Shown: one piece after another, positions 4,363 through 64,000 of the stretch | Layout of the letters: the number at the start of each line of letters is the position of its first letter | Position numbering within the stretch: the first letter of the stretch is position 1 | Translations under genes and position numbers: made by a program | Notes under the pieces: generated by a model | Seen by the model: the letters and a program-made list of their open reading frames with translations, nothing else | Database searches by the model: none | What the model was told of the DNA's origin: nothing | Assembly: GCA_046563655.1 (NCBI GenBank) | Contig: CM102287.1 | Location: 10,292,001-10,356,000, forward strand | Direction of reading: 5' to 3' | From: Yuukianura sp. NJ FZ-2021 | Taxonomy: Eukaryota | Length of the DNA: 64,000 bases

Positions 4363-4531
4363 CCTGCCACAATCCACAAATTGAACAGTCTTGTGATTAG
4401 TTTGATTAATCAACAGTTGAATTCACGATTGATTTGCTCCGGATGAAAAGAAAATGACGGATGCGAATGATGGAGGAAGATGACAACTCCAGTCAAAGTT
4501 TGTTGACAGTTCAGTTATTGACAAAACTTGG

Positions 4532-4545
4532 GTCGTCATGGTAAC
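4532..4545 (-). promoter_or_regulatory. RFX X-box upstream of the short CCDC81-like gene
   Basis: Minus strand reads GTTACCATGACGAC, fitting the X-box consensus; about 170 bp upstream of the ATG. Confidence 0.6.
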
Positions 4546-4570
4546 GACAATTTGAAGAAACTTTTATTTT

Positions 4571-5842
4571 TTAGATTTTGGGCTCCGTTAGAGCAAAGGA
4601 AGTGCCACCTCCACATGCGATGGTCACTGCTCGTGTTGATGTCGACAGAGGAACGATTGTTGGCCTTTCAATGACAGCGACGTTGTTTCCAGGAATACCA
4701 CAGTTGTCATGTTCATTCCATCCCCAGGAATAAACTGATCCAGATTCTCCAATGACCAGGTTATGCTCAGATCCACAAGCAATGAACAAAATACGTTCTG
4801 GAAGACCTTGGACAAAACCGGGAACTGCGTCGTAGTCTAAAGAAGGATTGCTGCAAGGTCTTCCCAACTGACAAAAGTTGTTTCGGCCCCAAGACATGAC
4901 GAGACCATTCTGAAGAAGCACTAGAACATGATTCCAGCCACACTGAAAGTCCTGCACGACGATATTTCTCGAATGATCTTCAATTTGGAACAATTTGATA
5001 AAATTTGGAATCAAATTTCCTTTGACTTGAGCCGATTGGTCCCCCAGCATTCCAAACTTGTTCCAGCCACAACCGTAGAAACATCCATCTTGGCCTAGCA
5101 CAATCGTAGAGCTTTTGCCACATCGGACTTTGATTGGTTTGAAACTAATGTTAATGTGGTCGTTTTGAGTTGGTTCAGCAATGAGCTTGAAATCCAGATT
5201 TAACCCGGTTTGACCTTTGGAATTGTCACCCCAAGATATTAGATTTGAGTCGCCAGTTATCGCTGCAGCGTGTCTCATTCCTGCAGCAATTTGAACAATC
5301 GACTCAATTGGAATTTTGTTCCAGGAAGGCGAGAATTTGGCCACTGACGATTCAGAAGTATTTCGTCCCAGTTGGCAGTACGTGTTGTCACCAACGGAGT
5401 ACAAAGTTCCAGCAGAATCCAGGAAAAGGCTGAAATCCCAACCGGAAACAAGCGATTCGTGAACGTCATAATCCGAATGCTGGCGTTTTGAAGTTACTTT
5501 AGGCAGTACTTGTTCCTTTGGACATTCCAGTTTCGTAGAAATGAGACCAAGGTGATGAAAGACGTAAGCTCCAGCACCAGATCTGTCAAGAACTACCGTA
5601 TGCGACCCCCCGCCGCTAATTAGTGGAAGGGAATTCCTGTGATCGGTGTGTTGGACATGAAGGTCTAAAGTGTTTATGACAGTAGGAAGTGACACTTGCT
5701 CTGAACTGAACCCATGACCTAGCTGACCTAAAAAACAATTTTACAATCAGTTTCAGTTGTTTTTTATAGACATTTTGACAGGGAAATAACATTCGTTTGG
5801 TAACTAACCTGTAGTATTTGCACCCCAGGAGTACAGTCTCAT
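4571..5842 (-). CDS. SERGEF: RCC1-repeat protein, secretion-regulating guanine nucleotide exchange factor-like, 2 exons
   Basis: Exon 1 MRLYSWGANTT, intron 5808-5728, then GQLGHG... Several RCC1 repeats (VSGWDFS..GDNTYCQLG, AAGMRH..WGDNSKGQTG, CGWNH..WGRNNFCQLG, ACGSEHNL..WGWNEH). Confidence 0.75.
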
Positions 5843-15200: not shown

Positions 15201-18102
15201 GTCACTAAGCCTCTCCAAATGAGGTCTACACTCTACGTTCACTACGATGTCAAGGACCTGTCTCTCTACTGCCCCTTCAGCCAAATGAAAATCTACCAAA
15301 ACTACTCAAAAACACTCAACAGACGCCAAAGATTCCACTTCAACCCACCAGTAACTCTACATTTTTAACATTTTGCATTTTAACATTTTAACATTCTTTG
15401 CAGTTTTAACATTTTAACATTTTTTGCAGTTTTTAAGTTTTTGCATTTTGTCGTTTGCAGCGACAGCATCTCCTCCTCGGAATTGACCATAAACCGTCAA
15501 GTCTCATTGCATACTCTGTTTCAACGTAAGTTAAAACAAAAGTTAAAACGTAGTTGAAACATAAGTTAAAACATATAAATGTAATATGTTTGTGTTTTTC
15601 TTCACTTATTTTTAGTTTTGGAATGGTATACGAAGCTTTCTTGCGGAAAGACTCTGATGAAATCTACTCCAATGTGAGACGAGATCCAATCGAGAAGTGG
15701 CGAATTGCCAAAACGGAAGAAGCCTACATTGGCTACATTCGCTACCTCAAGAAGGTGTGAAAAATTAATTGATTTACATGAATTAACTAATTAATTGAAA
15801 CTAATTAATTGGTTACTAAAAAGGATCCAAGGAGAAGTGGGATTTTAGTGGATCCGAGAGAAGCAGCTACTCGACTTGTGGATGCTGCCAATGCCTCTAA
15901 TATTGGAAACAACTGGATTGAAAAGTACTGGATCAACTACAACCAAATCATTCGACTCGAAATCCAATTTTTCATCAAGAATGCCCAGTTTTTGACCAAA
16001 ACGGACTTCCTCGTTCAAAAACTGTCTGAAATCCAAATCAATGTGGACAATGGAAACGGAGAAATTGTGCGTCTGGACACGGAGAGACAAGTCATTCCAA
16101 AATCTGCCTCCGTCAAGTTCATTGCTCACATTAGTCTCTTTGAAAATAACAAATTGAAGCCATCTTATCCTGGATTTGGTGACACATTTCACACCTTTAG
16201 TTAATTAATCAAAGGTTAATTAACTTTGTCTTTTCGTAGGATTGGTTCCTGTGCCACTGTCGTTTCACCTCATTGGTGGATTTGGACGCTGTTTCAAAAT
16301 GGAGCACTGGGGAATGGTTGGAGAGTCTTTGAGTACAACAGTTGTTGCCGGGTTGGATTCTCAAATTTTGATTTTCCAAATTTGAAATTTTAATTTCGTG
16401 AATTTTAATTTAAGAAATTTTGAAATTTTAAAGGTGTCCACCAGCCACTGATCTTCTGTTTGACTGGAACGCAACACTCCATTCACTTCAATTCAGGTAA
16501 AGTTAAAAAACAGTTTTAACTTTCAGGTTAAAATTGTTAAGTTTTAATTACGTTAGCTTGGTTAGGTTAGGTTTAATTAGTGATTTTGTTCAACAGGAGC
16601 CTCACAGACAAATATGGAGACGCAAGTTACTGTGGGCATGGCGAAATTGTAAAAAAGAAATTTTTTTTTTTTTAAATTTGGGTAGTTTTTAAAAAATGTT
16701 TGCAAATCCTGAATTGAGTTGTTCACAGGTCTGTTTCTCAAGCAAGGAAGCAATTACGTTCAACTTTGACGTTTTGGACTTGTCTAATCAGCGCTACATT
16801 CCATTCGACGGAAAGTTTAAACTCCAGGTACTTTGCAATAAAGTTAAAATCAACTTTAATTAACGGTTTTAACTGTTAAATGTTAAAAATGTTTTCACTT
16901 TGAGATAATCGGAGGTGGTAAAACTCGTAACACAATCAAGCGCTACAACCAAGACCAAATCGGTGCTTTCAACATTCCTGGAAAATCGGATATTTCTCTC
17001 ATCTGGACAATCGTTGTTCCAGACTCAGAGAAGGACAAAGTATTGGAGAAGGATCCAGAAACACAGGAAAACGTACTCACAGCAGGAGTCACGCAGATCA
17101 AGTTTACTTGCAACACACTCAGTCCTTGTAAGGAACAATTCCGTGACCTTTGACCTCAACGACAGAATTCTGTTGACCTTTGACCTCAATGAAAAACGTT
17201 TGTTGACCTTTAGGTGCTCGGGTTGCTCCAAGACTGGATCTCCAAGTCGAATTTTTCATGTTGGTTCGTATTTCAAACAAAGGAGTTGACAAAGAGACGC
17301 TGTGTATCCACGAACGTGAATTTGTAAGTTTTCAAGTTGAGAATTTTGAAATTTTCTGGGATTGAATTTTTTTTTTTTGGAAGTTTTAAAAATTTTGAAT
17401 TTTTGTTTTAGGTGATAATGTTGTATGGATTCACACCAAGTCCCGAAATCCAGATCGTGTTGACGCTGATTGGTTGCTTCCTTCTGCTGACTGTGATGTA
17501 CATCTTCTACGTGTGTTGTCGTCGTCATCGCAAAGTGTGGAGAGCAAATAAACTTAGAATCCTGGGATGGTGGCAGATCATCGTCGACACTTTCCCAAGG
17601 TCAATCAAGGAGGGCAAGGACTCTGTCGAAGCTCATCGTCGAAGGGACTCCATCATCCTGTCCCTTCAAGGGCACCTCAAAATCCCTGAAATTGTGTCCA
17701 AAATACCCGAGTCTCAGCCGGAACAAGACGAAGATGAGTCGATGGGAAGTTCGGGAGACAAGTCGAGCCAATCCGGAGAATCGGAAGGATCCGACTCCTC
17801 CGTGCCTCGAGTCAGAGCTAGGAGGAAGGGAGCTACTTGGACGGACATGGTAAGAACTTAGCCTAATCACCTAATCTTAGCCTAATTTGTTAGCCTAATC
17901 TTAACCTAATGTTCTTCATTAGGTTTATGAGCAAATCATCAGCCAGCGCCTGTTGGCAATTGTGAATCGGAATCGACGCATGCGTGACTATGTTCTCAAT
18001 ACTGCTCCTCCTCTCGTCGAAGACTTTGATAGTCTGCTTCCTGGAAACGAAGAAAGTTCGCCGTCCGTTCCAACGCGGCCAGAGGGCAAGAAAACCGTGT
18101 AA
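9245..18102 (+). CDS. CATSPERG: CatSper auxiliary subunit gamma-like single-pass membrane protein, more than 20 exons, with a Cys/Pro-rich insert
   Basis: N-terminal signal peptide. Spliced segments recall CATSPERG: LFIYGPKLLHSMDGG..LMRDFP, RLRPNYGW, YCPFSQMKI, RRDPIEKWR, AGCPPATDLLFD, FDGKFKLQIIGGG, VRISNKGVDKETLC..FVIMLYG followed by one TM helix. Frame traced through most junctions. Confidence 0.75.
9880..9990. repeat. Degenerate intronic tandem repeat of AAACGTTTTAC-like units
   Basis: Repeated acgtttt units fill intron 1 of the CATSPERG-like gene. Confidence 0.7.
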
Positions 18103-29976: not shown

Positions 29977-32900
29977 ATGCGTAAATTCGGAGATGGTTCG
30001 GGGATTCTGAGGGAGGCGAGTGCCTCATTTCTGCACCGTCCTGGCTCTGTTCCTAATTCGCCAGCAGAAGATGGGAAAGGTCAGCGGTTGTCTGGAGAAG
30101 AAGAGGTCAAAGGTCAACCGGTCAAGGTGAGCATTGGCCCAGAGGCTCCTGCCTTAGTTGTTCGGAAGGAGTCTGATGCCCGGGTGATCGTGACTGTTTC
30201 GGACACGGGAGAATACGAAGCCAAACCGTGGGAGGAACCGCCTTTGCCGAAGCCACAAAGCGACAGGAAGACTTCCTATGTCAGACTCCCGGGCAAAGTT
30301 TTGACGAATGAGGAAGAAGAAGATCTGCAGGTCGAGAAGGAACATCGGGCAAAGGAACTCGTCAACTACATCCAGGACAAATGGAGTGTCCAGGTCATGT
30401 CACAAAACTAAAATTAACCTAACTTTATGAAATTAGCCTAACTTTGTCAAATTAGCCTAACTTGTTAGCCTAACTAACCTAACAGATCGAGCACAAACCT
30501 TCTTTGGTGGAAGTGAACTACCGAACAGTGGAGATGCTCATGCACAAACAACCGCCAAATCACTGGCTACTCAAGAGAGCACGCGAAAAGATTGCAGAAA
30601 ACACTGGATTCTTCTCAAATGTGGCCAAACCTTATGAATTTCTGGGTAAATTTGACTTTTGACCTTTGACATTTTTGACCTTTGACATTTTTGACCTTTG
30701 ACCTTGAATTTTGTTGACGCGTTGACAGGAGTTCCGGAAATGGACAACGACATGGTTGTGTTAAAGAATTTACCAGATTCGCTAAAAATCAGTGTAAGTT
30801 CGACGCTGGTAAAATAATTAATAGAATCAACACAGGAAAGATAGCAGCTTTTTCTCTTTTGAAAGAATTTTTTCTGTATATTTTTCCTATCTCGGTCCCT
30901 ATCTCTCGTAATGTTAAAAAATTGAACGGCGTTTATTTTTGTCGTACTTTTTTTTATGCAAGACAAAAAATAATTTTTATTTGGCGTTTTAGCCTGACGA
31001 GTGGATTGAAGTTCAACTGCGACGTGAGAAGGAAAAGGAGGTCAGAAATTGTTAAAATAAGTATATAATTAAATAATTTTAATAAATAATTGTTTAATTT
31101 ATATAAAATAACAATTAGAGACAAAAAGCAAGACTTCCGCGTCTGAAGCACTTGAAATCCAAGAAGACTGTTTATACTCGAGGAAGAATCAAGCGTGGAG
31201 CTGGTGGAATTTCTTATGCTGAACGCCTCATAGCCAACGGAGAGCGGATTCAAAGAGGCAAAATTTTGGAAATTCCGTGATTTCAATCACTTCAAAATTT
31301 GCAAACTTTTTTTTTGTTCTTTAGAAATCCGCGGTACGACCACTTTGACTAAACTTTTGGAGAAGTGGACAGACACAATGGAGGATGAGACTGCGAACAG
31401 AGGTGGGACAGCGTTTGGGCAAGTGAAGCGATCGAAGACCATGAAGCAAGTGGCAGTCATGCCGGACTTGACGGGGGCTGGTGGCGCTGGATTCGAGAAG
31501 GACGACCTTGGCAGAGTCGTCGTCCAAGTAGACGAAAAGTTAGACCTTTGACCTTTCAAATTTCAAAATTACAAAGTTTCAAAATCCCAAGTTTCAAAGT
31601 TTCAAAATTTCAAAATTCGAACTTTCAAAGTTTTGACTTTTGAAGGTTATAGAACTTTGTCCTTGTTTTCAGAGCGTACAATGAGTTTTTGGCAATGGAG
31701 AAAATGATCACAGCGATCTACTACTTGATCAAGTCCATGATCAACGTCAGAATGAGTCAGCTCAAAAGTCAAGTAAGTTTTCATCAAAAGTGAAAAGTTG
31801 AAGGTCAAAGGTCAAGTTTTTTTTGTTTTAATTTTTGTAGAACCGAATTCCGTTGAGTGCCGTGCTGGAACTGAGGTCACGCAGTCCCACTGCCAGGAAA
31901 AAGAGAAAGTCAGTTCCACTGGATCTGCTGGACAAGTTTAGCAAAAACAGTGGATTTTATTCTGCTTTGTCACGCGGGTTCACTGGTGAATCCAAAAAGA
32001 AAGGATCAAGTGACCTCAACGAAAAAGAGTAAGTTGACCTTTGACCTTTGAGGAAATTGACCTGACCTTTGACCTTTCACAGCAAACAAACTGCAGAGTT
32101 TGAACGAAAACTGAAAAATCTTGGGGCGACGACGCTGCAATTTCAAGGAAGCAGACGAAATGTTCCTCCGCAGCCGTTTAACCCGGTGCCAATTGAAGAA
32201 ATTTATCCTGTCAGTGAAACGGGGTAAATAATATAATAAAATATATAAAATAATATTAATATATTAATATATAAAAATGTTATGCTTAGGTCTGCTGAAG
32301 ATGTGAAGACTGCTGTTGAGCGTGTTAAGCAAATTACAGACAGCGAATGTTACTTGGACGACCGACCTTTTGAACTGCGCAGTGCAAATTTGCGGAAAGA
32401 AAGACCGATGGCCCAAGCCGAACGGATTCGGCGTCATGCCGAACGCTTCCGAGCAATGTTTCTGCATCGGCTCAAACCAGCCGAACGGATTTGGTGGGAC
32501 GTTCGTGTTCGGGACTATTCCAAACGATTCGAAGCAGAACTTGGCGCGTTAGAATTCAAAACGAAAAGTTTTAAATTCAACGTTTTTAAACGTTTCAAAT
32601 TGAAAATTTGTCGAAATTCGAACGTTTTTGACTGTTTGTTGTCAGAAACGATCCGGAACCGCTGCATCCTCTGAAGTCAGTTGAATCTATGAAGTCGACC
32701 ACTTCCATTCCGCACAGTGACAAGTTCCCCGATCCGGATGACGTTCCGACTCCGAAACTTCCGGGTCCGCCGAGCCTAGAGCAACTCAGTTCCGAAGAAC
32801 AGTCACGACTCAACCTTTTAACAATTGTACCGGAAGCGGCGTATGCCGAACCACCCCGATCCGCTGTTCGGAAATTGTACGAATGCGCAGGCGTGAAGAC

Positions 32901-34729: not shown

Positions 34730-35533
34730 ATGGTAAGAATCAAGGAGTTGGAGGAATACCTCAGTCAGTGTGATACTTTCAATCGACCCAAAGTGGAACT
34801 GGAGCAGTATCAAACTTCTCCTCACATTGCCGCCAGGATGCTGTATTCTGCACAAGAAAACTTACAAGATTCCATCGTGTGTGATATGGGCAGTGGCTGC
34901 GGCATTCTCTCAATTGGGGTACCAGCTCATTTACATAACTTGCTAAAAATTAGATTAAGACTCTAAACTGTGATTAATAATCTAAATTCTAAACATTTTA
35001 GGCTGTGATGTGTGGAGCCAGTTTCGTTTGGGGGATGGACATTGACAGAGATGCAATTGACATTGCAGTGACCAATCGCGATGAAGTTCTGGACCAAGAC
35101 AAGTCAAGGCTCGAATTTATTCAAACTGATGTGGAACAATTTGCAAGGAATTGTCGCTTCCATGACCTTTTTGACGTGGTAAGAAGAAAAGTTAAGACTA
35201 AAACTAATTAGAACTAAGATTTATGTTAATTCAAATGTGAAAGTAATTAGATGTTGATTACAGGTAATTATGAATCCCCCTTTTGGTACAAAGACGACTG
35301 GAGCTGATTTTAACTTTGTGAAAATTGGTGCGAAACTGGTAAAAGCCGGAGGTCACATCTACAGTCTCCACAAAACGTCGACGCGGTCATTTTTCCAGAA
35401 GAAGGTCACGGAACTGGGAGTTGAAGGTCAGGTTTTAGCTGAGGTCAATTTCGATTTACCCAAAACGTACAAGTTCCACAAGGAAAAAACGAAAGACGTC
35501 CAAGTAGATTTCTGGCACTTTACAAAATTGTGA
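34730..35533 (+). CDS. METTL5: rRNA N6-adenosine methyltransferase METTL5, 3 exons
   Basis: PKVELEQYQTSPHIAA, CDMGSGCGILSIG (SAM motif), MNPPFGTK, IYSLHKTSTR, FDLPKTYKFHK. Confidence 0.92.
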
Positions 35534-35848
35534 ATTCATTTACATTTTATAGACATAAAAACAATTCATTTTAAATACTTTCGCAATTTAAACTTTATCA
35601 TTTCAATAACAATAATTTTTCTTGAAAAGTTGCAAAGTTTATTCAAAATTTTCACTTTTTCCACATTTTGTTTCTGGAGAAACCAATTGATTTGTTTGAT
35701 CAATTTCACGTTGATCAAACAATCAATTTTGCTTCCCTGCCTGCCATTTCTACTGCAGAAGTTTTTGTCCAAAGACACTCAAAACTTTGGATTTCGACCA
35801 CAACTTTTTTCTTTTCGCTCGTGGAGGTCATAAGGTCAACTTTTTAGA

Positions 35849-38800
35849 ATGAGTGTTGAACTAAAAATGGTTGAGGAAGAGGAAACAGAGGTGGAGGAGA
35901 TAGGGGAAGGTCATCAGGAGTTGACGTTGTACATTCCCCCGCTGCCTGCCAGCCTCACAATTCCTGATGCCAACATCAGCTCACTCGTCACCAATACAGC
36001 CTTGGTCCAAGACTGTGAAAAACTTTGTGTCGTCTGGGAGGAAACTGCGCTCAAAATAGTCGATGAACTTCCAACGGTATGATCAACAGTTCAATTTTTT
36101 TCAAAATTTTGTTTTTCAAAACATGTTTGAATCAATCTTTTTTTTATTTCAGAAACCGAGGACATTTACTCCTCTAGGTGAGCTGGAGATGTGGCGAGAG
36201 CGTAACAATCGCTTAGCCTTTACTTATGACCAACTCCAGTCCAAGGAAGTCCGCAAAGTTGTGCTTTTGCTCAACGAAGCTCGATCTCCACTTGGCCCAA
36301 GTTTCGAATTCACAAAACAGGATGTGTACTGGAAACTGCAGGAAGCTAGAGACGTCACTCGCTTTCTCGGAACCATCGAACGACACTTCAAGGTCACTAA
36401 AAACTCAAAAACTCAAAAACTTCAAAATTTCAAAAAAGTTTCAAAATTGTCAATTTTTTGTATCCTAGACGCTGACATATTCGAACAATCTAAAGGAGAT
36501 GACGGGGTCACTGGGTCACATCATGGAGGGACTCCAGATGATCTGGATGCTATCTCGTCACTACAACAAAGACGAAAGGATGGGCACTCTTTTGCAGATG
36601 ATTGGGAAATTATTGTACGACAGAGTCACTTTCATCATCCACCCAAATGCTCTTTTTCTCAAAGATCCTCTTCAGGCACTTGACCTCTCCGATTCAGCTA
36701 AAACTCTTTTCGTGACCTGGATGACCTCTTATATGGAAACGAGACACAGAATTGAGCAGTCGGGCAGAGGAGCTCGGTGGGAATTTGATCGCACAAAACT
36801 CTTTACGAAAACTGACTACGCTGCTGTGATTGCTCAGCATTTATCGGAAATCGCTGTCGTTTTGCTCGAATTTACTAATTTCTTTGGCCCTGAAATTAAA
36901 GAGGTAAGAACTAAAAAATTTCATTTTTTAAAAGTAATTTTGACTCAAAATTTTTGAGTTGATCTGACCTTGACCTTTGTAATTTTTCCTGTTTTAGGTC
37001 ATTGGAGACGCCAGAAAAGTGGACGATGCTTTGAAAAACGCTTTTATGCTGGTGATGCCTTTTGTTGAAGTTGGTTTTGACCCGTTCCTGGCAGCCAATG
37101 GGAAGCAGTGGACTGATTTGTTGGATCAACTGCGCAAGGACGTCAGGATTCTGGAAGCGGAAGCTGCAAGTTTCATTGACGAAGCTTTCACGATGGTCAG
37201 ATCAGCCGAGTCAGCATTTGCTATGCTCATGAAGGTCAGAACAAATAAAAGTTTCAAAATTTGGAAAATTATGAAATGTTGTTTATTTTTTGAAACGTAG
37301 TTCAAGCATATTGAAACGAGGGATGGAATTCACAACAAGCTGATGAAAAAGTTTGAAGATACGCTCATGATCTACATCCAGGAAGTTCGGAATGTCAAGG
37401 AATTCTATGAAGTAAGATTTCGAATTTCGTAATTTTGAAAATTAGCAATTTAATTTTGTTTTTCGTTTTTTCCAGGCAAACAAAGAGTACCCAACGCTGT
37501 ACAAATACAATCCGCCGATTGCAGGTCGAATGTGGTGGGTTCGTGGGCTGTTTTACCACATCAAGAAAACGATTCTGACGTTTCGGTCTCAAAATGACGT
37601 GATTAGTACAGAAGTGGGGCAGTTGGTAAGGAAAAACTAAAAGTTAAGGTCACAGAGGTCACGAGGTCATTTGATTTTGTAGGCATGTGAAGAGTACTTG
37701 GCCCTGGCTCACGCCATGAAGAAGTACGAAGACGGTCTCTACGACTCTTTCTGTGAAGCTGCGCTCAAAGCAATTCCAGCCATTCGAAACAACATTCTCT
37801 GCAAAGTCCCCACCGGAAAAGAACGTAAACACAAAATACTTCCATTTCTATAACTTTTTTAGTTCACTTTATTCAAATATATTTCATTAAAATGTGTTTA
37901 ATTTTATTCACAAGTGACCAAGGACTTGGACATCAGCAAAGCCAAAGAAGTCTTCAAAGTCAATCGTGAGATTTTCCAAAAACTCAAACTTTTTAAAATA
38001 GTTTTGATAATTTTTATATTTTTATATTTTATATATTTATATTAATATATTTTGTGTTTAGTTCCTGCTGAAGTGATGGAAATGGTCCAGGAGTCGCAGA
38101 ATCTTGAGCAAATGGGCTACCGGATTTCAGAGACTGTGCGGAACATTGCATTTCAACGGACGCAGTACATCCGGAACTGCAGAAGACTCGAAGGGATTGT
38201 CAAGTTTTACTACGCTGTGAGGCGAAATCTCAGACCAGCAGAGGTACATCTTCAAAAATTCTAAAAAATTTTAAATTTTAGTTTTGAATATGCTTTTCAA
38301 AATTTTGTAACTTGGAGACTCTGCTGATGGAGAAAACAATCCGTGAAATGGAGAAGAACTTTGAGCATGGCGTCGTAAGACTCAACTGGACTGCTCTTGG
38401 GATTCCTGAATTTGCAACTAAACTGGCTGATTCCACACAACGCTTCCAGGCCTTGACGCTGCTGGTATTTTAAACATCAATTAAGTCAAATGCTGTTTCA
38501 AAATTTCATTTCAGGTTCTATCTTTTACCAACGTGCTGCAAAGTTATGCAAAAAACTTTAAAAAAAACTTGTTTCAAAAACTGAAAACGATAATTTCCGT
38601 TTCGCTTAAAACACTCAACTTTCAAACATTAAGGGTGCTAGTAACTTAATTGTTAATTAAGTTTAATAGGCACCTAATTTAGGCAGGTCTCGTCTTCCTT
38701 CCGTACATGTCTTGAAAACAAAGCTCTCAAATATTTTATTTTCAAAAATTGGAATGAGTTTTTATCATGTTTTGAAATGAATTTTTTTTTAACTTTCTTT

Positions 38801-41135
38801 ATTTTTTTTTTGAAAAGGTGAACAAAGTGGCGAAGGACGTTCGTGTTCGATTGTGGCTCATCAAAAATTCGAAACTGTTTTTGGAACCACCGTACAAAGA
38901 AGAAGTTCATGGAAAACTCACGATTCCAATTCTCGAATGCTGGGCAAGTTTTACTAATTGTCAGACTCAAAATTTCAAAAAGTTCAATTACTAATGAAAT
39001 TTTGTTTAAAATTTAGGATTTTTTCAAGTACTGGGAACGTTATCGACTGCGTGTGTACGACCATTTGTTGCTTCAGTTCAAAGCCCTTCCTCCGCTGTTT
39101 CTCAAACTGGAGAATTTGATTTACGGAACTTCGCTGGGGAACAGGAAGCAGTTTAGACCGTACTTTAGTGGATGGGAGAAGAGAATCTTCCTCTTCATGT
39201 CCAAGTTACACTCAAAACTGCTTTTTTAAAACATGTTCAAATAGTTCTGTTCTAAACTTTGTTGTTTTTCAAGGTTTATCATCCGGACATTGTACGATTT
39301 TGAAAAAAGACTCCTCGTTTATGAACCGCTGTTTGACATCACGGCGAGTCTCCAAGCGCCTGACATCCACTTGACCCCAACGCCACACGAAATCTACAAC
39401 ATGGTCATGGCTGGCACACGCGAATGTGTTTATGGGTTTAAAATTTTCTAAACAATTTTTAAAAACAACTTTTTAAAAACTTTTCTAAAAATATTTCTTC
39501 AAAATTCATGTTCTGTTTGTGTTTAGGACCAAGAATTTCGTCCGGTGGCTCCGTGGAACTTGTACAGAAGCCCCACCAGTTTCTGTTGGTGGGTTTGACA
39601 ACAACGGTGGGTTCATCTACTCTTATTACTTGGATGTAGGAAGATTGCCACGCATTCTGCAACTCATGATCAAAACACAAGAAACTGTCCAGACTCTCCT
39701 TCTTCGCATTTGGAACCACCTCAAAAAGTAACTAAAATTTAAAAAGTTGAAAATGAATTTTAAAAAGTTCAAAATATTTTAGAAACAATTTTGGTTAGGT
39801 ACCGAAAGTTTAAGAACTTGTGGAGATACAACAAGGAGAAGACAGTGGGAGGATTTGCCCAGAAGAATCCTTCAGTAGAAGAGTACGATGCAAAAATGGG
39901 ATTTTATCTGGACATTTCCAGCAGAGTGGAGGAACTGCCGAGTCATCGGCTGGAAGGAGCCATTCGCGTTAACATGGAACCTCTCCAGTCAGCCATTTGC
40001 AGACACTCGGCAGAGTGGATTGCTAAACTCGGCTCTGCTTTGGCCGCAAGCACAAAGGATCTCAGCGCTGATTTCGACAGAATCGTTGCAGTAAGCATCT
40101 TTTCAGATGACCTTTGACTTTTTTGTTTGACCTTTGACCTTGCATTTCTGAAAAATCTGTGATTTTTTGAAGGAATTTGAGCGAGATGTGGCCATCACTC
40201 CGCGATCGATGGAAGATCTCAAGAAACTGCTGGAGACTCTCAAGGTTGTTCAAGACTCGACGATTGAGATGGAGGGGAAATACGTGGATCTGAGGAACAG
40301 ATACGCCACGCTCCAGAGATACCACGTCGAGGTAAGTTGAAATTTCAGAAATTTCATTTGACCTTTGACCTTGACCTGAACTTTTTAGTTTGAAGAAGCT
40401 GAGATTCGGATTCTGGACGATATCTGGAAAAGATGGCAGCTTCTGTGGCTCCAGGAGGCCAAACTGATTCAGAAGCAGTTGGAACCAATCAAAGCCAGAT
40501 TCTCAAGAGTCACGATTGAACAGAGATACAAACTGAAGAGCGACTTATCAGTTTTTATGAAACATTTCTACGCAATTGGTACAATTATTCAGCATTTTAT
40601 GAAAAAGGAAAAAGTTTTAATGATTTTTCAGCTTTAGATTTTTCTCGTTGCAGGGCCCTTGGAAGGAGACTTGGAAAAAAGTTTCGAAGCCCTTTCAGTA
40701 AGTTCATAGTAATCATAATTTTTTTCTCTAGAAAACAATTAAATCTAACCGTCCTAATTTGAAAATGTGTGTTTTGTAGGAATTGATTGGTGAGTTCAAG
40801 GAACTGGAGAAGGCCAAGGAGGAGGTCACGTCGGCCGAAAAGGTCCTTGGAATGCCGGTGACCCAGTTTCCAGAACTGGTGGAATTGACGAAAGATGTGG
40901 TTGCCATGGAAGAACTGCTGGGAGAAGAGGCACTCAAACTGGCCCTTAAGGGCCCACGAAAAAGGGCGGACAAAAGAAGCAGAACCTTCGAATCGCCATC
41001 GGAACAGTAACTTACAATGTACTTCTAAAATACTTCCAGTTTCTAAGTGAATTCCTTTTTAGATTGGGTGCAAAGGAGACGAAGCAGCGTCACAAAGGAA
41101 AGAAGGGCAAGAAGGCTCAAAAATCTGGAAACTAA
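35849..41135 (+). CDS. DNAH10-like axonemal dynein heavy chain, tail (DHC_N1 region) only, ending in a Lys-rich peptide
   Basis: PLGELEMWRER, LQMIWMLSRHYNKDERM, RWEFDRTKLF, PPIAGRMWWVRGL, RLNWTALGI, TKNFVRWLRGTC. Frame is open across all junctions traced; stop at 41135 (or 41010 if the last intron is retained). No AAA domains follow. Confidence 0.8.
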
Positions 41136-41533
41136 TCATGAGACACATCGAAGCTTAAAAACCGAAGTACAACTTCTAAGTCTTTGGATACACTGAATGT
41201 TGTACGTTTACTCTAATCAATGCATAAAATACAAACTGAACATGATTCTTAGTTGTAAACACTTAGTGACACATGTACTTTAGAATGTTAGGTTAATCAC
41301 ATCTTATGGTTAGTGATACTGTTAGTGTTACCACGGATACTGAACGTTGACGAGACGATTTTTAGCACACACGAGGTTAATACATGGAACAAGTTGAGGT
41401 AAGGGACTCGTGACGATTTGGCAACTAAGACTCTCCTTCGTTGACCTTATTTGTGATGATTTATGGCAATTAGTTGATGTAGTTCGTAGTTTTGTCGATT
41501 TATTTCGTAGTTGTGTCGTTTTGAACTTGGATT

Positions 41534-41865
41534 TCATGGAGTCCAGCCTCCCTTTGACCTCATCTGAGCCTGTAATTCCAGAATGGAGTCTTCTCCAGAG
41601 TCCACGTCCGATGACCCCAGATGGGCCATGTGTCTGAAACTACTTGGATCTGGTCCACTGATCATCGAAGCATCCAGCTTCTTCCGCACTCCATTTCTCT
41701 GCTTAAACAAATTCCAACATTAATCACAGTTAAGTTAATTATGTAATTTAGTTAAATAATTAGTTAGTAAGGCAGCTGTTGGCCACTGACCTGGAGATGG
41801 GTGGGGTTATCCGTGTTTCCTTTGAGGGCACAGCAACTGAACAGTTGAAAGATGTCTGATGTCAT
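41534..41865 (-). CDS. CDC42SE: CDC42 small effector protein (SPEC family, CRIB motif), 2 coding exons
   Basis: MTSDIFQLFSCC..HLQ | ..RKKLDASMISGPDPSSFRHMAHLGS..LQAQMRSKGG; N-terminal CC, CRIB motif and QMxSKGG end. Intron about 41790-41702. Confidence 0.85.
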
Positions 41866-42768
41866 GATTCCTGCAGAATTGTTGTCTCCAGCTGCTGGCG
41901 ACATGACCTTTGACCTCTCCTGTGTTTTGAAAGCTGCGTTTGTTCTTAGCCGACCGCTAAAAACTGATTCCAGTATTGTACAAGTAATCACAGACAAAAG
42001 AACATTTTTGAAACTAAACTCCCAGATTACTGCTTACTCATCTCAGGAACAAGTGAAACCTAATGTTAATTTGAAAGTTAATAACTGTTCAATTAAGATA
42101 ATTGAGATTAGCCTAATCAATCAATTTTCAACTCTTATCTAGTACAAACTTTACTCCTATGCCTTAAACTACAGTACCACCTAAATTTCAAAGTTTCACT
42201 TTTTCTTGCAAAATTTTAAACTTTTGACTGGAATGAATAATGCAAAAGTTTTATGAATCCAATCTGAAAATAGATTGAAAAGAGAGAAAGAAAAAGAGAG
42301 AAGATCCCGTTGTATTTCCCTTATTTTGTTTATCCTTCCTTGCGCACTTTGGCAAAAAAATCACACATTTTGGCACAGATAAGAACATCAGCTGAGTACA
42401 GGTTGACGTCATTATGCAAACTCACAAAAAATCGCAAAAATCATAAAGTTCATTCATAAAAATCATCAACAAAACGATTTTTGTACATTCGGATTGATTT
42501 GCGTTTAATTTAAACTAAAATTTAAAATTTGTTAATTTAACATGAAGATTTGAATGACTCGATAAATTTAAAACACCCCTCGATAGTTACTTTAAAACGC
42601 TTGAAATCCGTCGTTAAAATGATTATATTATAAAAATATATTAAAAAGTGGATCAGCTGCAATGCAATCAACTAGGGAAGACAAATGAATTAGCAATTAT
42701 TCATATTTGCTAACATAGGCCAGGCTACTGAAGCTTATCACTCAAACGTTCTTCCACTCGTAACAGTT

Positions 42769-45700
42769 TCAAGGAAGTTTCGGTTCGGAGAGAGAAATGA
42801 AGGGAACTTGTTTGGCATACGTTTTGAGCGCATCGAGGAACACGCCCTTTTCTCTTTCCGTTTCAAAAGTCAAGTCCCACTTGACCAAGATGCTGTCCAG
42901 TTGAAAGACGAGGCGGACAAAGGTCACATGTGCTTCCATGCACTCCTGAAACAAACACCACTTTAGTATCAACATGAATCAATCAATTTAGCATTTTCAT
43001 AAGAATCCACTCACAACTTGTCTCAATTTGACCAGTTCTCGAACGTGTTTGACACTGACAGACTCCGAAGATCGATTGACGAGGCATGACAGATCTGCGA
43101 CTAGAATCAACTCTTCATTCGTCAGCACCACAGCAGACAACGTGTACAACTTGTCTAAAAGTCAAGTAAAAAAGTGAGAAAATTAAACTTTTCAATATTT
43201 AGCAGCTAAAAGTTATAACTCTAATTTTTGTTCACAATTTTGAAAAGTTACCGTTCCCCTGAGTGTTTCGACAAGATGCTTTGCGAAGTATTCCAAAGTA
43301 GGCGATGGGATTGGTAGGACTCATGAGGGCCTTTTGCGTCTGACTAAAATCTTGAACCAACGGAGGAATCTCAAACTCTCCACAGATTTCATCTGGAATC
43401 AGACATCATAAAATCAAAGTAAAACACCAAGTAATTGATAAGTAATTGAGTAATTGAATTACTGAGGAAGCATTCAGTGAAAGACGAAGTTCGATCGGAG
43501 TCTCTGAAGATGAGTCCAAAGTAATTCCCTGAGAAATCCAGCCCCAGTCCATGTCGCCCAATCAGAACTTCCATCTTACTCAGCTTAGTCAACTCTAACT
43601 TCTTCCAAAACTGCAACCAACTCTCCACTTTGTCTCTGCAACAACACAATCAATCAATTAACTACTAAATTTACTAATTAATTAACTAAAGTAATTGATT
43701 GTTAGAAGTTCCTTACACTTCAGGTCCAATGATTTTGCAAAAGTAGACTTTCTTGTTTGAGAAAATGACGAGAGTCAAGTAGCTGCCCGTCAACCGCATA
43801 ACCGTCACCTTCAAAACACAAATCAAAACTTTAGTCAAAACTTGATTAAAACGTAATAGTAGATTAATCGATTACCGTAGACTACTAATTAGATTGTTAA
43901 TTACCTTGACCAGAGCAAGGAATCTCTCATCCTGATGCTTGAACAAGTTGAGGTCAAAGTGTAGCAGGAGTCGATGGTCCACTTGGTTGAATTTTTCGTA
44001 GTCATATTTGAATGGTTGCGACATTGGAGCAAAGGAAACTGAAGCTAAACTTGGATTGTTCTGTCCAGAAGATGCTGCCGTGATTGTCTTTTCATATTGC
44101 GTGCAGATACTGCCAGTACATGATCCTGAGGAAGTTGAATCTGTCATGGGAGGACCCAGAGTTTTAGTGGCAGCGTTGAAAGCGATTTCAGGTACATCCA
44201 GTTCCAGTGCTTCCTCTACCACAGCAACGTCACTCCCACTGCTACTCGTAGTCTTCGTAGGAAGTATTTCGATGCTGCTACTGTCATCGCAACTCAGCGT
44301 CTCAATGTCACTTTCCGACTTTGGGTCTTCTGAAATTACAAAAAATGATAAAAAGTTACAAAAACTGAAAATTTTGAAAAAGTACTTAAGTTTTGTTACT
44401 TTTTGCATTAGTTGAGTTAGAAGAGGGTTGAGAGGAGAGGGAGTTCGGAGGAACAGGAAGCAGATCCGAAAACTTGGATTCTGTTGGCAGCGATTTCCCA
44501 CCATAAAATACCCCAAACAAACCTTCAACACAAAATTAGTCAAAAAACCCAATTAGTAATTAAATTCAAACCGTTTAGCAATACACAAACAATTTCAAAA
44601 TTTTAAAAAATTTCAAAATTCCAGACGAAAATTATTACCTCCAACTGAAACTGGACTGGACGTTCTCTGTGGCATCCAACCTTTGATAGGAACTGTTACT
44701 GGTGGACTTCGAGCCATTTGAGGACCAGGAATGCTGGATGCTGGTCCAGCATCCATCGGGATCAGCAGTTCACTTTGACATGCTGGATTGGGACACATCG
44801 GCACTTCAATCACATTTTTCCCACCCCCAACTACTTTCTTGTTCGCCATGCCTCTAGAAAACGCCCAGTCACACTTCGCACATTGAAATCCCTCTCCAAA
44901 TTCCTGGAGAGTTCTCGCCTGGAGAAAAGTGTTGACCTTGTCCTGGAACCTCCTGAAATCCTGGAGTGGCATCACACAGTACTTCCGTTGAAGATGTTTC
45001 CTCCTTGTGTCAAACGTCATTTCAAACTGGACAGACTCTGTTTCTTCATATCTCTTCTCCTCTCGCAGCGATTCCAGCGATTTGAGATCCCATTTGTACA
45101 AAATGGAATTTGGACTTTCAGAGTCCAATTGGTAAAGGAAGTTGTCCAGAATTACCATGCAATAAGGTACGCCTTTCTCAAACGTTCTGAAACGTTCGCC
45201 CTTCCCTCCAGGATCCAAGAATTCTTCGAGCTGATTCAGCGATTCTGAGGGAGAAGAATCGAGTGAGTGTGAAATGGATTCACTTTGACAGGGGTAAAAC
45301 ACTGTCCCATCGCTGGACGAAGTTGTGAAGTCCTCTTCTAGGGGTTTGATAGACTCCTCGTCATCTGAAGGGGTCCTTGGAGGCGCTTCAAGAGTTGAAT
45401 TTGCATGTGGATTGCTCAGTTCATAAAATAGCTGGGTTTCGGATAGGGCTGAGTAGAAAGAGGCATCTTTCGTTGTAAGCGGCAGCGATTTGGATTGATT
45501 CAGCGATTGCTTCGTCAGCGATAAATCATGTTTGGATTCCAAATTTAACAAAGTCTGGACGTCGGCTCCACCTTAATAATCAAACAAGAACGTTTAAAAA
45601 CGTTTTTTTCTCGCTGATTTTTTAAAGAAAACGTTTTTTTTTGTCGTTTTTTTACGCTTTGTAGAATTACCTTGTCGAAATAACCAATACTCCTCTCCAT

Positions 45701-47189
45701 ATTTTTCACGAATGGACTGCAGCGCTTCACTTGTGGCCTTGATCAGTTCATCTGACACTGGAGTTGGCAGCGGCGCTTCTTCGATGGAGCTGGAAGAACT
45801 ATCGCTTGACCCAGCGCTGCTTTTAGGTCGTCCTGACCTTGACCTTACAGTTGTCGGTGTTTGACCTTTCCCAGTTGAGCAATCGTCTGAATCCAGGATC
45901 ACAAGTTCTCTTATCTTTGCTTTCTTGCGACAGGCACTTCGGACAGAAGACGAAGAAGAGTCAAATGATGTCGTGAGGCTGCGAAGGTCCGAAAGTCGGT
46001 CATTGTGATGCCCCACAGTGAGAGTAGTGCTGATTGACAGTGCCTGGCGACATAAAAACGGCATTGGAGTGGTCGCTGGCGACGGACGAACGACAGCCTC
46101 CAGTCCTCTCCGTACTTCCGAAGGAGACAACTTCTTTTGATCCAGTACAAAAAGTTTGTTCTTGAGAACTGGGCGGCTCAAGTGGGAAGACACAAGTTTA
46201 CGGTAATTAGGTGAGTAAGTAATTGGATTCCCAATGAAAGCAACACTTTTCAGAGCGACTAATCGTCTGATGGGTTCGATTTCCCGATCGTCTGAGATGA
46301 CATTTTGTGACACATCTAACATCTCCAAAGATTCTGGCAAAGGATGACGACAGAGCAACGTCGGGATGTAATTATTAGAAAGCAGGAGAATCTTGAGATT
46401 GGGCGGAGTAGGAGGAACTGTAGTGAGTTGATTAAAGTTTAGATTGAGTACGGTCAGTGTCTGGAGAATTCTGGACAAAGTGGAGTCTATTCCAGTGATT
46501 CTGTTTCGGCTTAAGTTGAGTAGTTCCAGTGCTGGTGTAAACTGGAGCATAGAAGTATCGACTTGACTGATTCTGTTGAAAGAACAATCAATTTCATGCA
46601 GTTCTGGCCAAACTACGGCGACTGGAGAAGGTGAATTGGAAGATGTCATAGGTTGATCTGAAGTACAAAGTTGAAAGACTTCATCAATTGATTCAACATT
46701 GCGAGAACACTTGAGCCGCCGCAGTTTGGATCTCCTACGAGAGTTTAATCCAGTTATACAGTGGGGACGAACTTTACGAAGTTCCAGGAATTCCAGTGAC
46801 CGAAATCCACTGAGGTTCAAACTTCCTGGAGACAGTGGACAAGATTCTGTGAGAACAATGACGAGAGATGGAGTTTGTTCAAAGAAGTCTGCAAGGAAGA
46901 GCAACTGATCTTCATAATCTTGTATCATCGTCGTATCAGCTTCATGTAATCGATTACTTTGCGTTGTCAATTGATTGATGGCTTCAGAGATACTCCATAG
47001 CAGAGCAGAATCGATTACAAATGGGACTGATCGATCCAGGATTTTGTCACAGTTGGATTTTAGTTGCTTAGCCAGTTGTAGGATACTTTTGAGATGGGAG
47101 TCTGACTGGAATGACCCGAGTCTCGGACTCATTATGTCTGCTCTTGAACCACGACGTGAACTGGACGGTAACTTAAGGAGATTAGCCAT
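42769..47189 (-). CDS. STK11IP: Serine/threonine-protein kinase 11-interacting protein-like (LRR repeats, Zn-ribbon, PH-like C-terminus)
   Basis: LNLSGFRSLEFLELRKV, WPELHEIDCSFNRI, LRRs, GNPITYSPNYR, IREKYGEEYWL, FQCAKCDWAFS..CPNPACQSELL, VDHRLLLHFDLNLF. Large first exon 47189-45671. Confidence 0.85.
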
Positions 47190-48325
47190 TTCTGGTATGT
47201 TTTGCTCAATCAGCTGATCCCGTGATGATCACAGCGTGATCTCTGGTAATCTTCTGTTACTGCTTCTTGCTTAAGGTGACCCCTGACACGATTGACGACA
47301 CTGAAACGAATTCAACAAATATTAACTTGATAACTTTTCCATTTTCGACAATGAATGATAAGCGCAGCGTTGAAGTTTCAAGCATGCTGCACTTGCAATA
47401 AAAGTGTAACTTAACTTACCTTTCAAGCCAGCTTAGTTGAAAGTTAAGTAACGACGGATTTAAATGTGGACTAAATCCCACTTTACATCTCAGCAAATTA
47501 GTGCGGATTTGAGTTATTTTGCGTCGCGTTCTCATCCAGATTGCTCAGTTAACGAGACTAAAATAGTAAAAAGACAGTTAGAAATTAGAGTTAAGGCTGG
47601 AATGAAGTTGAATGACATCTCTAAAGAACCTGGAATTCTGCACGTAGCTTATGGGGATTAAGACACTGAACTTTAGGGGCAGTGTAGTATTCCACTTCCA
47701 AATATTTCCAATTAATCTATGACTAATCTTACCCTCTCTTTTCTTACTGCATCTAAACATGTAGTAATTGTATTGTAAGTGACCTTCTTAATCTCCACTT
47801 GTCTCCTCCAAAATCAACAACAACAGCTGTGTTGTGAACATTCAAAGGGAAATTCCACATGGAAAGATGCAACAGGGAAAGTGGAAACATACTCTCACAT
47901 GACCGCATTCCCCATAGATCTCAAGGATAAAAGATACATTCTATACAGATTTAAAATTAACTAATTATTAATTGCAATTGACAATCATAAACTAACATAC
48001 ACCTAACTCCGAACTTGTTTACAAAATCTCACACTCGACTCCAAAGTTTTCCCGGAGTTTAAGTAAAAGAGTGCGGACGTAGTGGAGAACAGAAAAGCGG
48101 GGAAAAATAGCGGGAAAATATTTTTGAAAATAATTTTGTCGGTTGGTGTAGAAGGTACTTCTACTACACACCACACTACCCCCGGTGTTTTTTTTTTAAA
48201 ATCATCCAATCACATTCATTCCTTTCCTTTTGTTTATCACACCGTCAGACACCGATAAGTTCCTCTGTTTACGTAAACACCAGTGTCAATTACTTAATTA
48301 ATTAAAGTTTCAATCAATTCAAATC

Positions 48326-48339: not shown

Positions 48340-48568
48340 TCCAACCGTAGCAACAGGTGATTTGTCTTGTTTGTTGGTGATATCGATACATCCGGGTCCG
48401 CTTCTCACCTTTCTTCCTAGTTCATCAAAGGATCATCTTCGCTCATCGTCATCATTCGAACAAATAACGTTGTTTGTAAGACAGGTAATTTGTGCCTTTC
48501 CTTTGGTTGGAAGAGTAATCGATTGATCTGTTAAAACTTAATGGTAATACAAACGTAACACTAACAGG

Positions 48569-64000
<15,432 letters not shown>

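Follow-up and report, generated by a model that had tools for sequence, protein, structure and literature searches.

Can a heavy chain of a flagellar dynein lose its motor and still be kept as a gene? This question is raised by a locus of Yuukianura sp. NJ FZ-2021, located at positions 35849-41135 (plus strand) of a stretch of 64,000 nucleotides (nt) of contig CM102287.1 (assembly GCA_046563655.1, positions 10,292,001 to 10,356,000 of the forward strand), which is referred to here as the window. An earlier note, made from the sequence of this stretch, had described the locus as an open gene for the tail of a DNAH10-like dynein heavy chain, without the motor. DNAH10 is the alpha heavy chain of I1/f. 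Among the inner-arm dyneins this is the most conserved one, and it is on I1/f that the signals from central pair, radial spokes and kinases, by which the flagellar waveform is shaped, chiefly act; the debate on whether its key role lies in force or in regulation has drawn on Chlamydomonas strains whose motors were deleted by engineering. Our analysis confirmed and refined the observation, in the sense that the gene encodes a DNAH10-class tail which ends, without lesions, just before the linker. The interpretation given to it, as a motor-less scaffold or one half of a split gene, was partly supported: an open, tail-only gene stands at the locus, but the loss of the N-terminus and the presence of a second dynein gene downstream, of DNAH12 type, had been missed.

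A DNAH10-class tail in an open frame

A gene model was assembled by coordinates from a reading of positions 35700-41800, and the translations of 16 exons were submitted to Pfam. The model is an open frame of 19 exons on the plus strand, extending from an ATG at 35849 to a TAA at 41008-41010, with 3510 coding nt and 1169 codons. Its 18 introns are short, 17 of them with 57-96 nt and one with 353 nt; GT serves as donor in 17 and GC in one, and all the acceptors are AG, each of them preceded by a T-rich tract. Neither stops nor frameshifts nor broken splice sites were found across the 3510 coding bases and the 18 introns. A candidate version with 20 exons has 1192 codons and finishes at 41135, the end given in the earlier note. 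In this version a possible intron of 56 nt (intron 19, 41007-41062), with a GTAACT donor that overlaps the stop codon and a ttttag acceptor, would lead to a possible exon 20 of 73 nt (41063-41135), predicted from the sequence only, coding for a Lys-rich C-terminus that matches no Pfam family, with its stop at 41133-41135. The frame of roughly 1000 codons with DNAH10-type tail motifs that had been announced does exist as an open multi-exon frame in this place, its size being 1169 or 1192 codons, and the predicted mass of the product is 136-139 kDa in the 19- or 20-exon form. A CATAAA is found at 41223, 3' of the end of the gene. No N is present across the window and the base composition shows no break at 41 kb; an Rfam scan of the window gave no match, and no repeats marking the ends of the gene were found.

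The protein begins in exon 1 (35849-36076), with an acidic N-terminus whose first 20-40 residues, approximately, have no counterpart in DNAH10, as the relatives align from model residue 22-40 onwards. Pfam detected DHC_N1 at E ≤ 0.01 in five of the 16 submitted translations, corresponding to exon 2 (36153-36392, E 1e-15), exon 3 (36469-36903, E 6.7e-27), which is the longest with 145 codons, exon 4 (36998-37234, E 1.7e-05), exon 6 (37476-37625, E 5.6e-06) and exon 9 (38062-38243, E 3.1e-07). The collinear alignment to a mammalian DNAH10 described below covers exon 5 (37301-37411), exon 7 (37683-37824), exon 8 (37915-37965, only 51 nt) and exon 10 (38318-38464), after which comes the sole long intron (353 nt, 38465-38817), and, further downstream, exons 12 (39017-39198), 13 (39274-39435), 14 (39527-39727), 15 (39799-40090), 17 (40389-40578) and 18 (40654-40697). 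Exon 11 (38818-38943) of the model is followed by the sole GC-AG intron (intron 11, donor GCAAGT at 38944), and exon 16 (40173-40331) showed a weak match to DYH2-5-8_CC (E 0.0016), under the curated cut-off. Exon 19 (40780-41010) corresponds to human DNAH10 residues 1345-1385; the homology stops within it at around 40917, and a basic tail without homology leads to the stop codon.

The class of the tail was assigned through exon 3. When this exon was compared with solved structures, the six matches obtained at E ≤ 0.001 were all I1/f alpha heavy chains, namely human DNAH10 (8j07_k8), two chains of 9fqr, Chlamydomonas 8glv_Cn, 9e5c (labelled 'IDAf-alpha') and 9y6s_7G, with DNAH2 and the outer-arm chains below threshold. 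The best of them was human DNAH10 8j07_k8, matched over residues 418-554 with an E value of 3.7e-30. A HMMER search of the full library with the same exon recovered 593 proteins at E ≤ 0.001, among them the DNAH10 of Heterocephalus (P0009, 4540 amino acids). Residues 40-1136 of the spliced model aligned to residues 299-1396 of P0009 as a single collinear piece, with 352 of 1108 positions identical (32%), 21 gap positions (2%) and a score of 628 bits, and this collinear fit over every exon junction validates the gene model. In a FastTree phylogeny of 13 tails, the model grouped with the full-length scorpion DNAH10 (P0276, support 0.76), then with the mammalian protein (0.975), and then with that of the choanoflagellate Monosiga (0.997). 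The identity of the tail to mammalian DNAH10 is 32% for the model and 36% for the scorpion protein. The gene is confirmed by these data as a tail of the DNAH10 class (DHC5, I1/f alpha), with the DHC_N1 region and the rest of the stem.

Closer relatives were also searched for. The nearest relatives of exon 3 are short fragments, one with 86% identity over 58 amino acids and others with around 59% over some 170. Word-index searches gave nothing, whether exon 3 was run against proteins of 255-2000 amino acids or exon 19 against those of 41-133 amino acids, and metagenome contigs scanned with exon 19 yielded 588 pattern matches and no relatives. When 64 matches of 400-1099 amino acids were aligned to the model, none exceeded 38% identity. 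Apart from this, a cluster of seven near-identical DNAH10-tail-like proteins (the P0028 cluster, 1297-1310 amino acids, on contigs of 4.4-10.6 kb) was noticed, whose members align to the tail model through their own last residue; they may be open reading frames (ORFs) limited to an exon, or a further truncated form.

The ends of the homology and the dynein gene downstream

The homology had been said to end just after VTQFPEL. It does end near this motif, but it runs around 13 residues further, up to residue 1385 of human DNAH10 and residue 1396 of P0009. In an alignment of five sequences, the homology of the model stops just ahead of the first conserved block of the linker (DHC_N2), in agreement with the earlier placement of the cut near the start of this domain. 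The short Lys/Arg-rich peptide with which the frame was claimed to finish is also there, with 17 Lys/Arg among the final 52 residues of the 20-exon model, and it starts after the homology stops. A frameshift origin of this peptide was considered and rejected, as the other frames are without DNAH10 homology. Between 41010 and 48500 no remnant of the linker was detected in any frame with approximately the first 500 linker residues of three DNAH10 relatives (word size 2, E up to 20), nor was any remnant of the motor found in any frame of the same interval. As neither linker nor motor remnants follow position 41010, the end of the gene is a structural cut rather than a nonsense mutation with more of the gene beyond it.

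The other end is also cut. Full-length relatives start to align at their own residues 124-384 (P0009 at 299 and P0276 at 380) and the tail protein at 22-40, and some 260-340 N-terminal residues of full-length DNAH10 are absent from the gene. No match to an upstream exon for this missing part was found, although the region is poorly conserved and a diverged exon could escape detection. With cuts on both the N-terminal and the linker side, the gene is trimmed at both ends. It has in common with DNAH10 and with Chlamydomonas DHC1 (1-alpha, listed in the DHC5 class by Kollmar 2016, PMC5100056) the collinear tail, residues 299-1396, whereas, unlike full DNAH10, it is devoid of linker, AAA1-6 ring, stalk, microtubule-binding domain and C-terminal domain. 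It differs from DNAH10 also in the lack of those N-terminal residues and in its new acidic N-terminal and basic C-terminal peptides, for which no family was matched, and the whole protein has 1169-1192 amino acids against around 4500-4600 for DNAH10.

The gene is therefore motor-less at this locus, as the earlier note had proposed, but motor exons located at 52.1-64.0 kb on the plus strand had passed unnoticed. These were detected by tblastn with full-length DNAH10 relatives, as a collinear series that begins at 52.1 kb and reaches the end of the window. They belong to a gene at 48548-64000 (plus strand) of the type of DNAH12, a single-headed inner-arm dynein, and this gene has an N-terminus, a tail, a linker and a motor of its own. 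Its first ORF (48548-49072) matches DNAH12 residues 13-119, and the exon at 51326-51607 matches residues 594-681 with an E value of 3.2e-10 and no DNAH10 at E ≤ 1. Further on, the motor exon matching DNAH12 residues 2193-2308 scored 132.9 bits with DNAH12 versus 84.3 with the best DNAH10, and that matching residues 3229-3401 scored 189.9 versus 112.6 bits. The DHC_N2 linker matches of the window fall inside this gene, which runs off the window at approximately DNAH12 residue 3400. It starts 7.4 kb downstream of the tail gene (48548 versus 41135), on the same strand and with two opposite-strand genes in between, and it reads as an independent and complete-looking gene. The motor of 52.1-64.0 kb, 11.6 kb downstream, was considered as the missing motor of the tail gene and rejected, because its exons are of DNAH12 type and have an N-terminus of their own.

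Conservation of the tail and surroundings of the gene

Decay of the tail was examined on conserved columns, defined as those with agreement among at least 80% of the 12 other tails. In the model the consensus is preserved at 142 of 198 conserved columns (72%) versus 206 of 846 variable ones (24%), and the full-length scorpion DNAH10 behaves in a similar manner, with 146 of 194 (75%) and 218 of 855 (25%), respectively; the other eleven tails retain the consensus in 81-97% of the conserved columns. Retention is spread along exons 2-19, each one of them. With a terminal branch of 1.49 versus 1.30 for the scorpion protein in the 13-tail tree, the tail gene evolves fast, yet like a constrained arthropod orthologue. 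The claim that an intact frame and intact splice sites speak against a decayed pseudogene was supported, and, as far as can be judged from its sequence, the gene does not look decayed, being open, correctly spliced and tail-only at this locus. The conservation pattern reflects the whole history of the gene, so it cannot date the cut, and a very recent truncation would look alike.

Unrelated genes flank the tail gene closely on both sides. Upstream, the last coding exon of a METTL5 homologue (35258-35533, plus strand; human METTL5 residues 123-207, E 3.7e-21) ends 315 nt before the ATG of the tail gene. An acceptor-like ttttag lies immediately 5' of this ATG, and this site and the same-orientation METTL5 315 nt upstream could point to an intron in the 5' untranslated region, to trans-splicing or to co-transcription of the tail gene. 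A pair of AGGTCA half-sites with a 2-nt spacer was also observed at 35825-35848, 11 nt 5' of the ATG. Downstream, a small convergent ORF is found at 41537-41719 on the minus strand, with an AATAAA on this strand at 41504. It is probably the opposite-strand CDC42 small effector that the earlier note had named CDC42SE, in such a way that the position and strand of the ORF stand and its identity is a lead from an Atlas feature search (top three clusters at 0.84-0.86), with no match in Pfam or NCBIfam. Still further, three large ORFs at 43875-47228 on the minus strand form a leucine-rich-repeat gene (LRR_8 with E 2.1e-10 on 45597-47228); the nearest Atlas cluster of one leucine-rich-repeat ORF is mostly arthropod.

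Other observations were made along the window. Two ORFs on the plus strand, at 75-737 and 17412-17858, around 17 kb apart, code for almost the same stretches of a small protein that includes a hydrophobic segment, and this suggests that a gene was duplicated locally. A SERGEF-like ORF has its best named matches in molluscs, at 32-34%. The perfect direct repeat AGGTCAAAGGTCA, which we take to be a nuclear-receptor element of the DR1 type, appears 15 times in the 64 kb versus 0 in 100 shuffles, for example at 40128-40140, 40359-40371, 41904-41916 and 32035-32075, and its half-site appears 151 times in the window versus around 28 expected from the composition. These sites fall mostly in introns and intergenic DNA, and the tail gene has two of them, in its introns 15 and 16.

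Scaffold, remnant or part of a split gene

The reading that we favour, to which we give about an even chance, is that of a real gene, tail-only, whose product serves dynein I1/f as a motor-less scaffold. The gene encodes the tail only, equivalent to residues 299-1396, approximately, of mammalian DNAH10, between a short acidic N-terminus and a short basic C-terminus, and its product of 136-139 kDa or so would still bind the intermediate and light chains of I1/f and the tail of the beta heavy chain. Its place would then be the I1/f site in the 96-nm repeat of the axoneme, where it would be a passive scaffold or a regulatory hub and produce no force, and it could represent a retained stage of the loss of the I1/f motor reported in some arthropod lineages.

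There is a laboratory precedent for such a protein. Truncations of Chlamydomonas 1-alpha without the motor, used for the rescue of pf9, are reported to be partly functional and to join 1-beta and the remaining I1 subunits in complexes at the correct site (Myster et al. 1999, PMC2156140; Toba et al. 2011, PMC3031465). No assembling fragment below about 143 kD is described in these papers. The truncations are motor-less 1-alpha tails of a mass similar to that predicted here (at least ~143 kD versus 136-139 kDa). Precedents for the loss of the motor also exist. DHC5 and DHC6, the heavy-chain classes of I1/f, are reported as absent in Branchiopoda and Nematocera (Kollmar 2016, PMC5100056), and the chordotonal cilia of Drosophila, without heavy and intermediate chains of I1/f, are described as retaining I1/f-linked regulators, including a chordotonal-specific paralogue of IC138 (PMC6367277). 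In these reports, too, animals manage without the I1/f motor and keep other dyneins and I1-linked regulators, although there the heavy chains are wholly absent or not expressed, whereas here a tail is retained. The main text of the Kollmar survey did not yield a mention of truncated or tail-only DHC forms (PMC5100056). Members of the heavy-chain family thought to act without motor activity in a dynein complex are described in the preprint of Chai et al. 2025 (DNAHX and DNHD1; PMC11785096), but according to it DNAHX keeps a full, inactivated motor ring, in contrast to the gene described here, which is without any motor.

Several data weigh against the scaffold. The missing 260-340 N-terminal residues are the chief internal argument, and the extreme N-terminus is the part that pairs the heavy chains in other dyneins. 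The Chlamydomonas truncations are described as laboratory-made proteins that kept the native N-terminus and had a full-length 1-beta partner (PMC2156140; PMC3031465), whereas the present gene is natural and has its N-terminus trimmed. No close relative sharing the cut between tail and linker was found in the relatives searches. The terminal branch of the model (1.49) is the longest of the 13-tail tree, where P0141 has 1.42, the scorpion protein 1.30 and the mammalian one 0.66, and this may hint at some relaxation. Finally, an open frame is equally expected of a very recent remnant.

This last possibility, a recent and non-functional remnant or partial duplicate in which an internal part of DNAH10 would have stayed behind, or been copied, between METTL5 and the CDC42SE-like gene, with a frame still open only because of its youth and with or without a full-length DNAH10 elsewhere, we regard as unlikely, albeit worth serious attention. 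The cut at both ends relative to DNAH10 is as in a segmental copy, and the longest terminal branch and the new N- and C-terminal peptides without family point in the same direction. Such a remnant has to be reconciled with a gene without a single lesion in its coding bases or introns, with conserved columns retained evenly over its length and to the same degree as in a full-length arthropod orthologue, and with the rarity reported for duplicates of the DNAH10 class (DHC5; PMC5100056). It is improbable, in our opinion, that the gene is split, with the linker and motor of DNAH10 at another locus or beyond the DNAH12-type gene and joined by distant cis- or trans-splicing or produced as a second polypeptide. 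The cut falls exactly on the boundary between tail and linker, as such a split would have it, and a GTAACT donor overlaps the stop codon; this donor, however, can pair with an acceptor 56 nt further on, beyond which the frame meets a stop codon. Moreover, the next 23 kb contain no linker or motor of DNAH10 type, as the motor exons present there favour DNAH12 and have their own N-terminus, and, with introns of 56-353 nt in the tail gene, splicing in cis would need more than 23 kb across three genes.

An assembly artefact, by which a misjoin near 41.0-41.5 kb would part the tail from its motor, seems to us very improbable. The window has no N and no break in composition, and five DNA runs from two studies share words with parts of 35800-41400 (word shares of 0.28-0.82). 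The gene ends with a defined stop, a possible terminal intron and the CATAAA at 41223, its neighbour has an AATAAA of its own at 41504, and the N-terminal cut would demand a second misjoin. We see next to no likelihood in a last explanation, in which the DNAH12-type motor would have the DNAH10 tail as an alternative 5' module, with a splice from just behind the ...FPEL codons into the first exon after 51607. Both tails do end at ...FPEL, at around 40880 and 51590, and a phase-0 GT comes directly after the PEL codons in exon 19, but this donor (GTGGAA) is weak, the DNAH10 homology runs some 13 residues past it, and the splice would span 10.6 kb and two opposite-strand genes.

The motor-less scaffold can be taken one step further, to a natural headless I1/f in which both heavy chains, DNAH10 and DNAH2, would be tail-only under selection, in a scaffold carrying the IC138/IC140 hub. 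This extension is tentative, and we consider it possible but rather doubtful. If the tail gene were only a young remnant, it would record the dismantling of a motor gene of 4500 residues. If it is a scaffold, a tail-only chain selected in nature would be the evolutionary counterpart of the motor-deletion experiment of Chlamydomonas, and more so if its partner were also tail-only. With both chains headless, the scaffold and signalling role of I1/f could outlive its motor role. A selected tail-only chain, with or without such a partner, would also suggest that dynein surveys scored on motor domains, in which I1/f is called absent from some arthropods, can overlook tails that have been retained.

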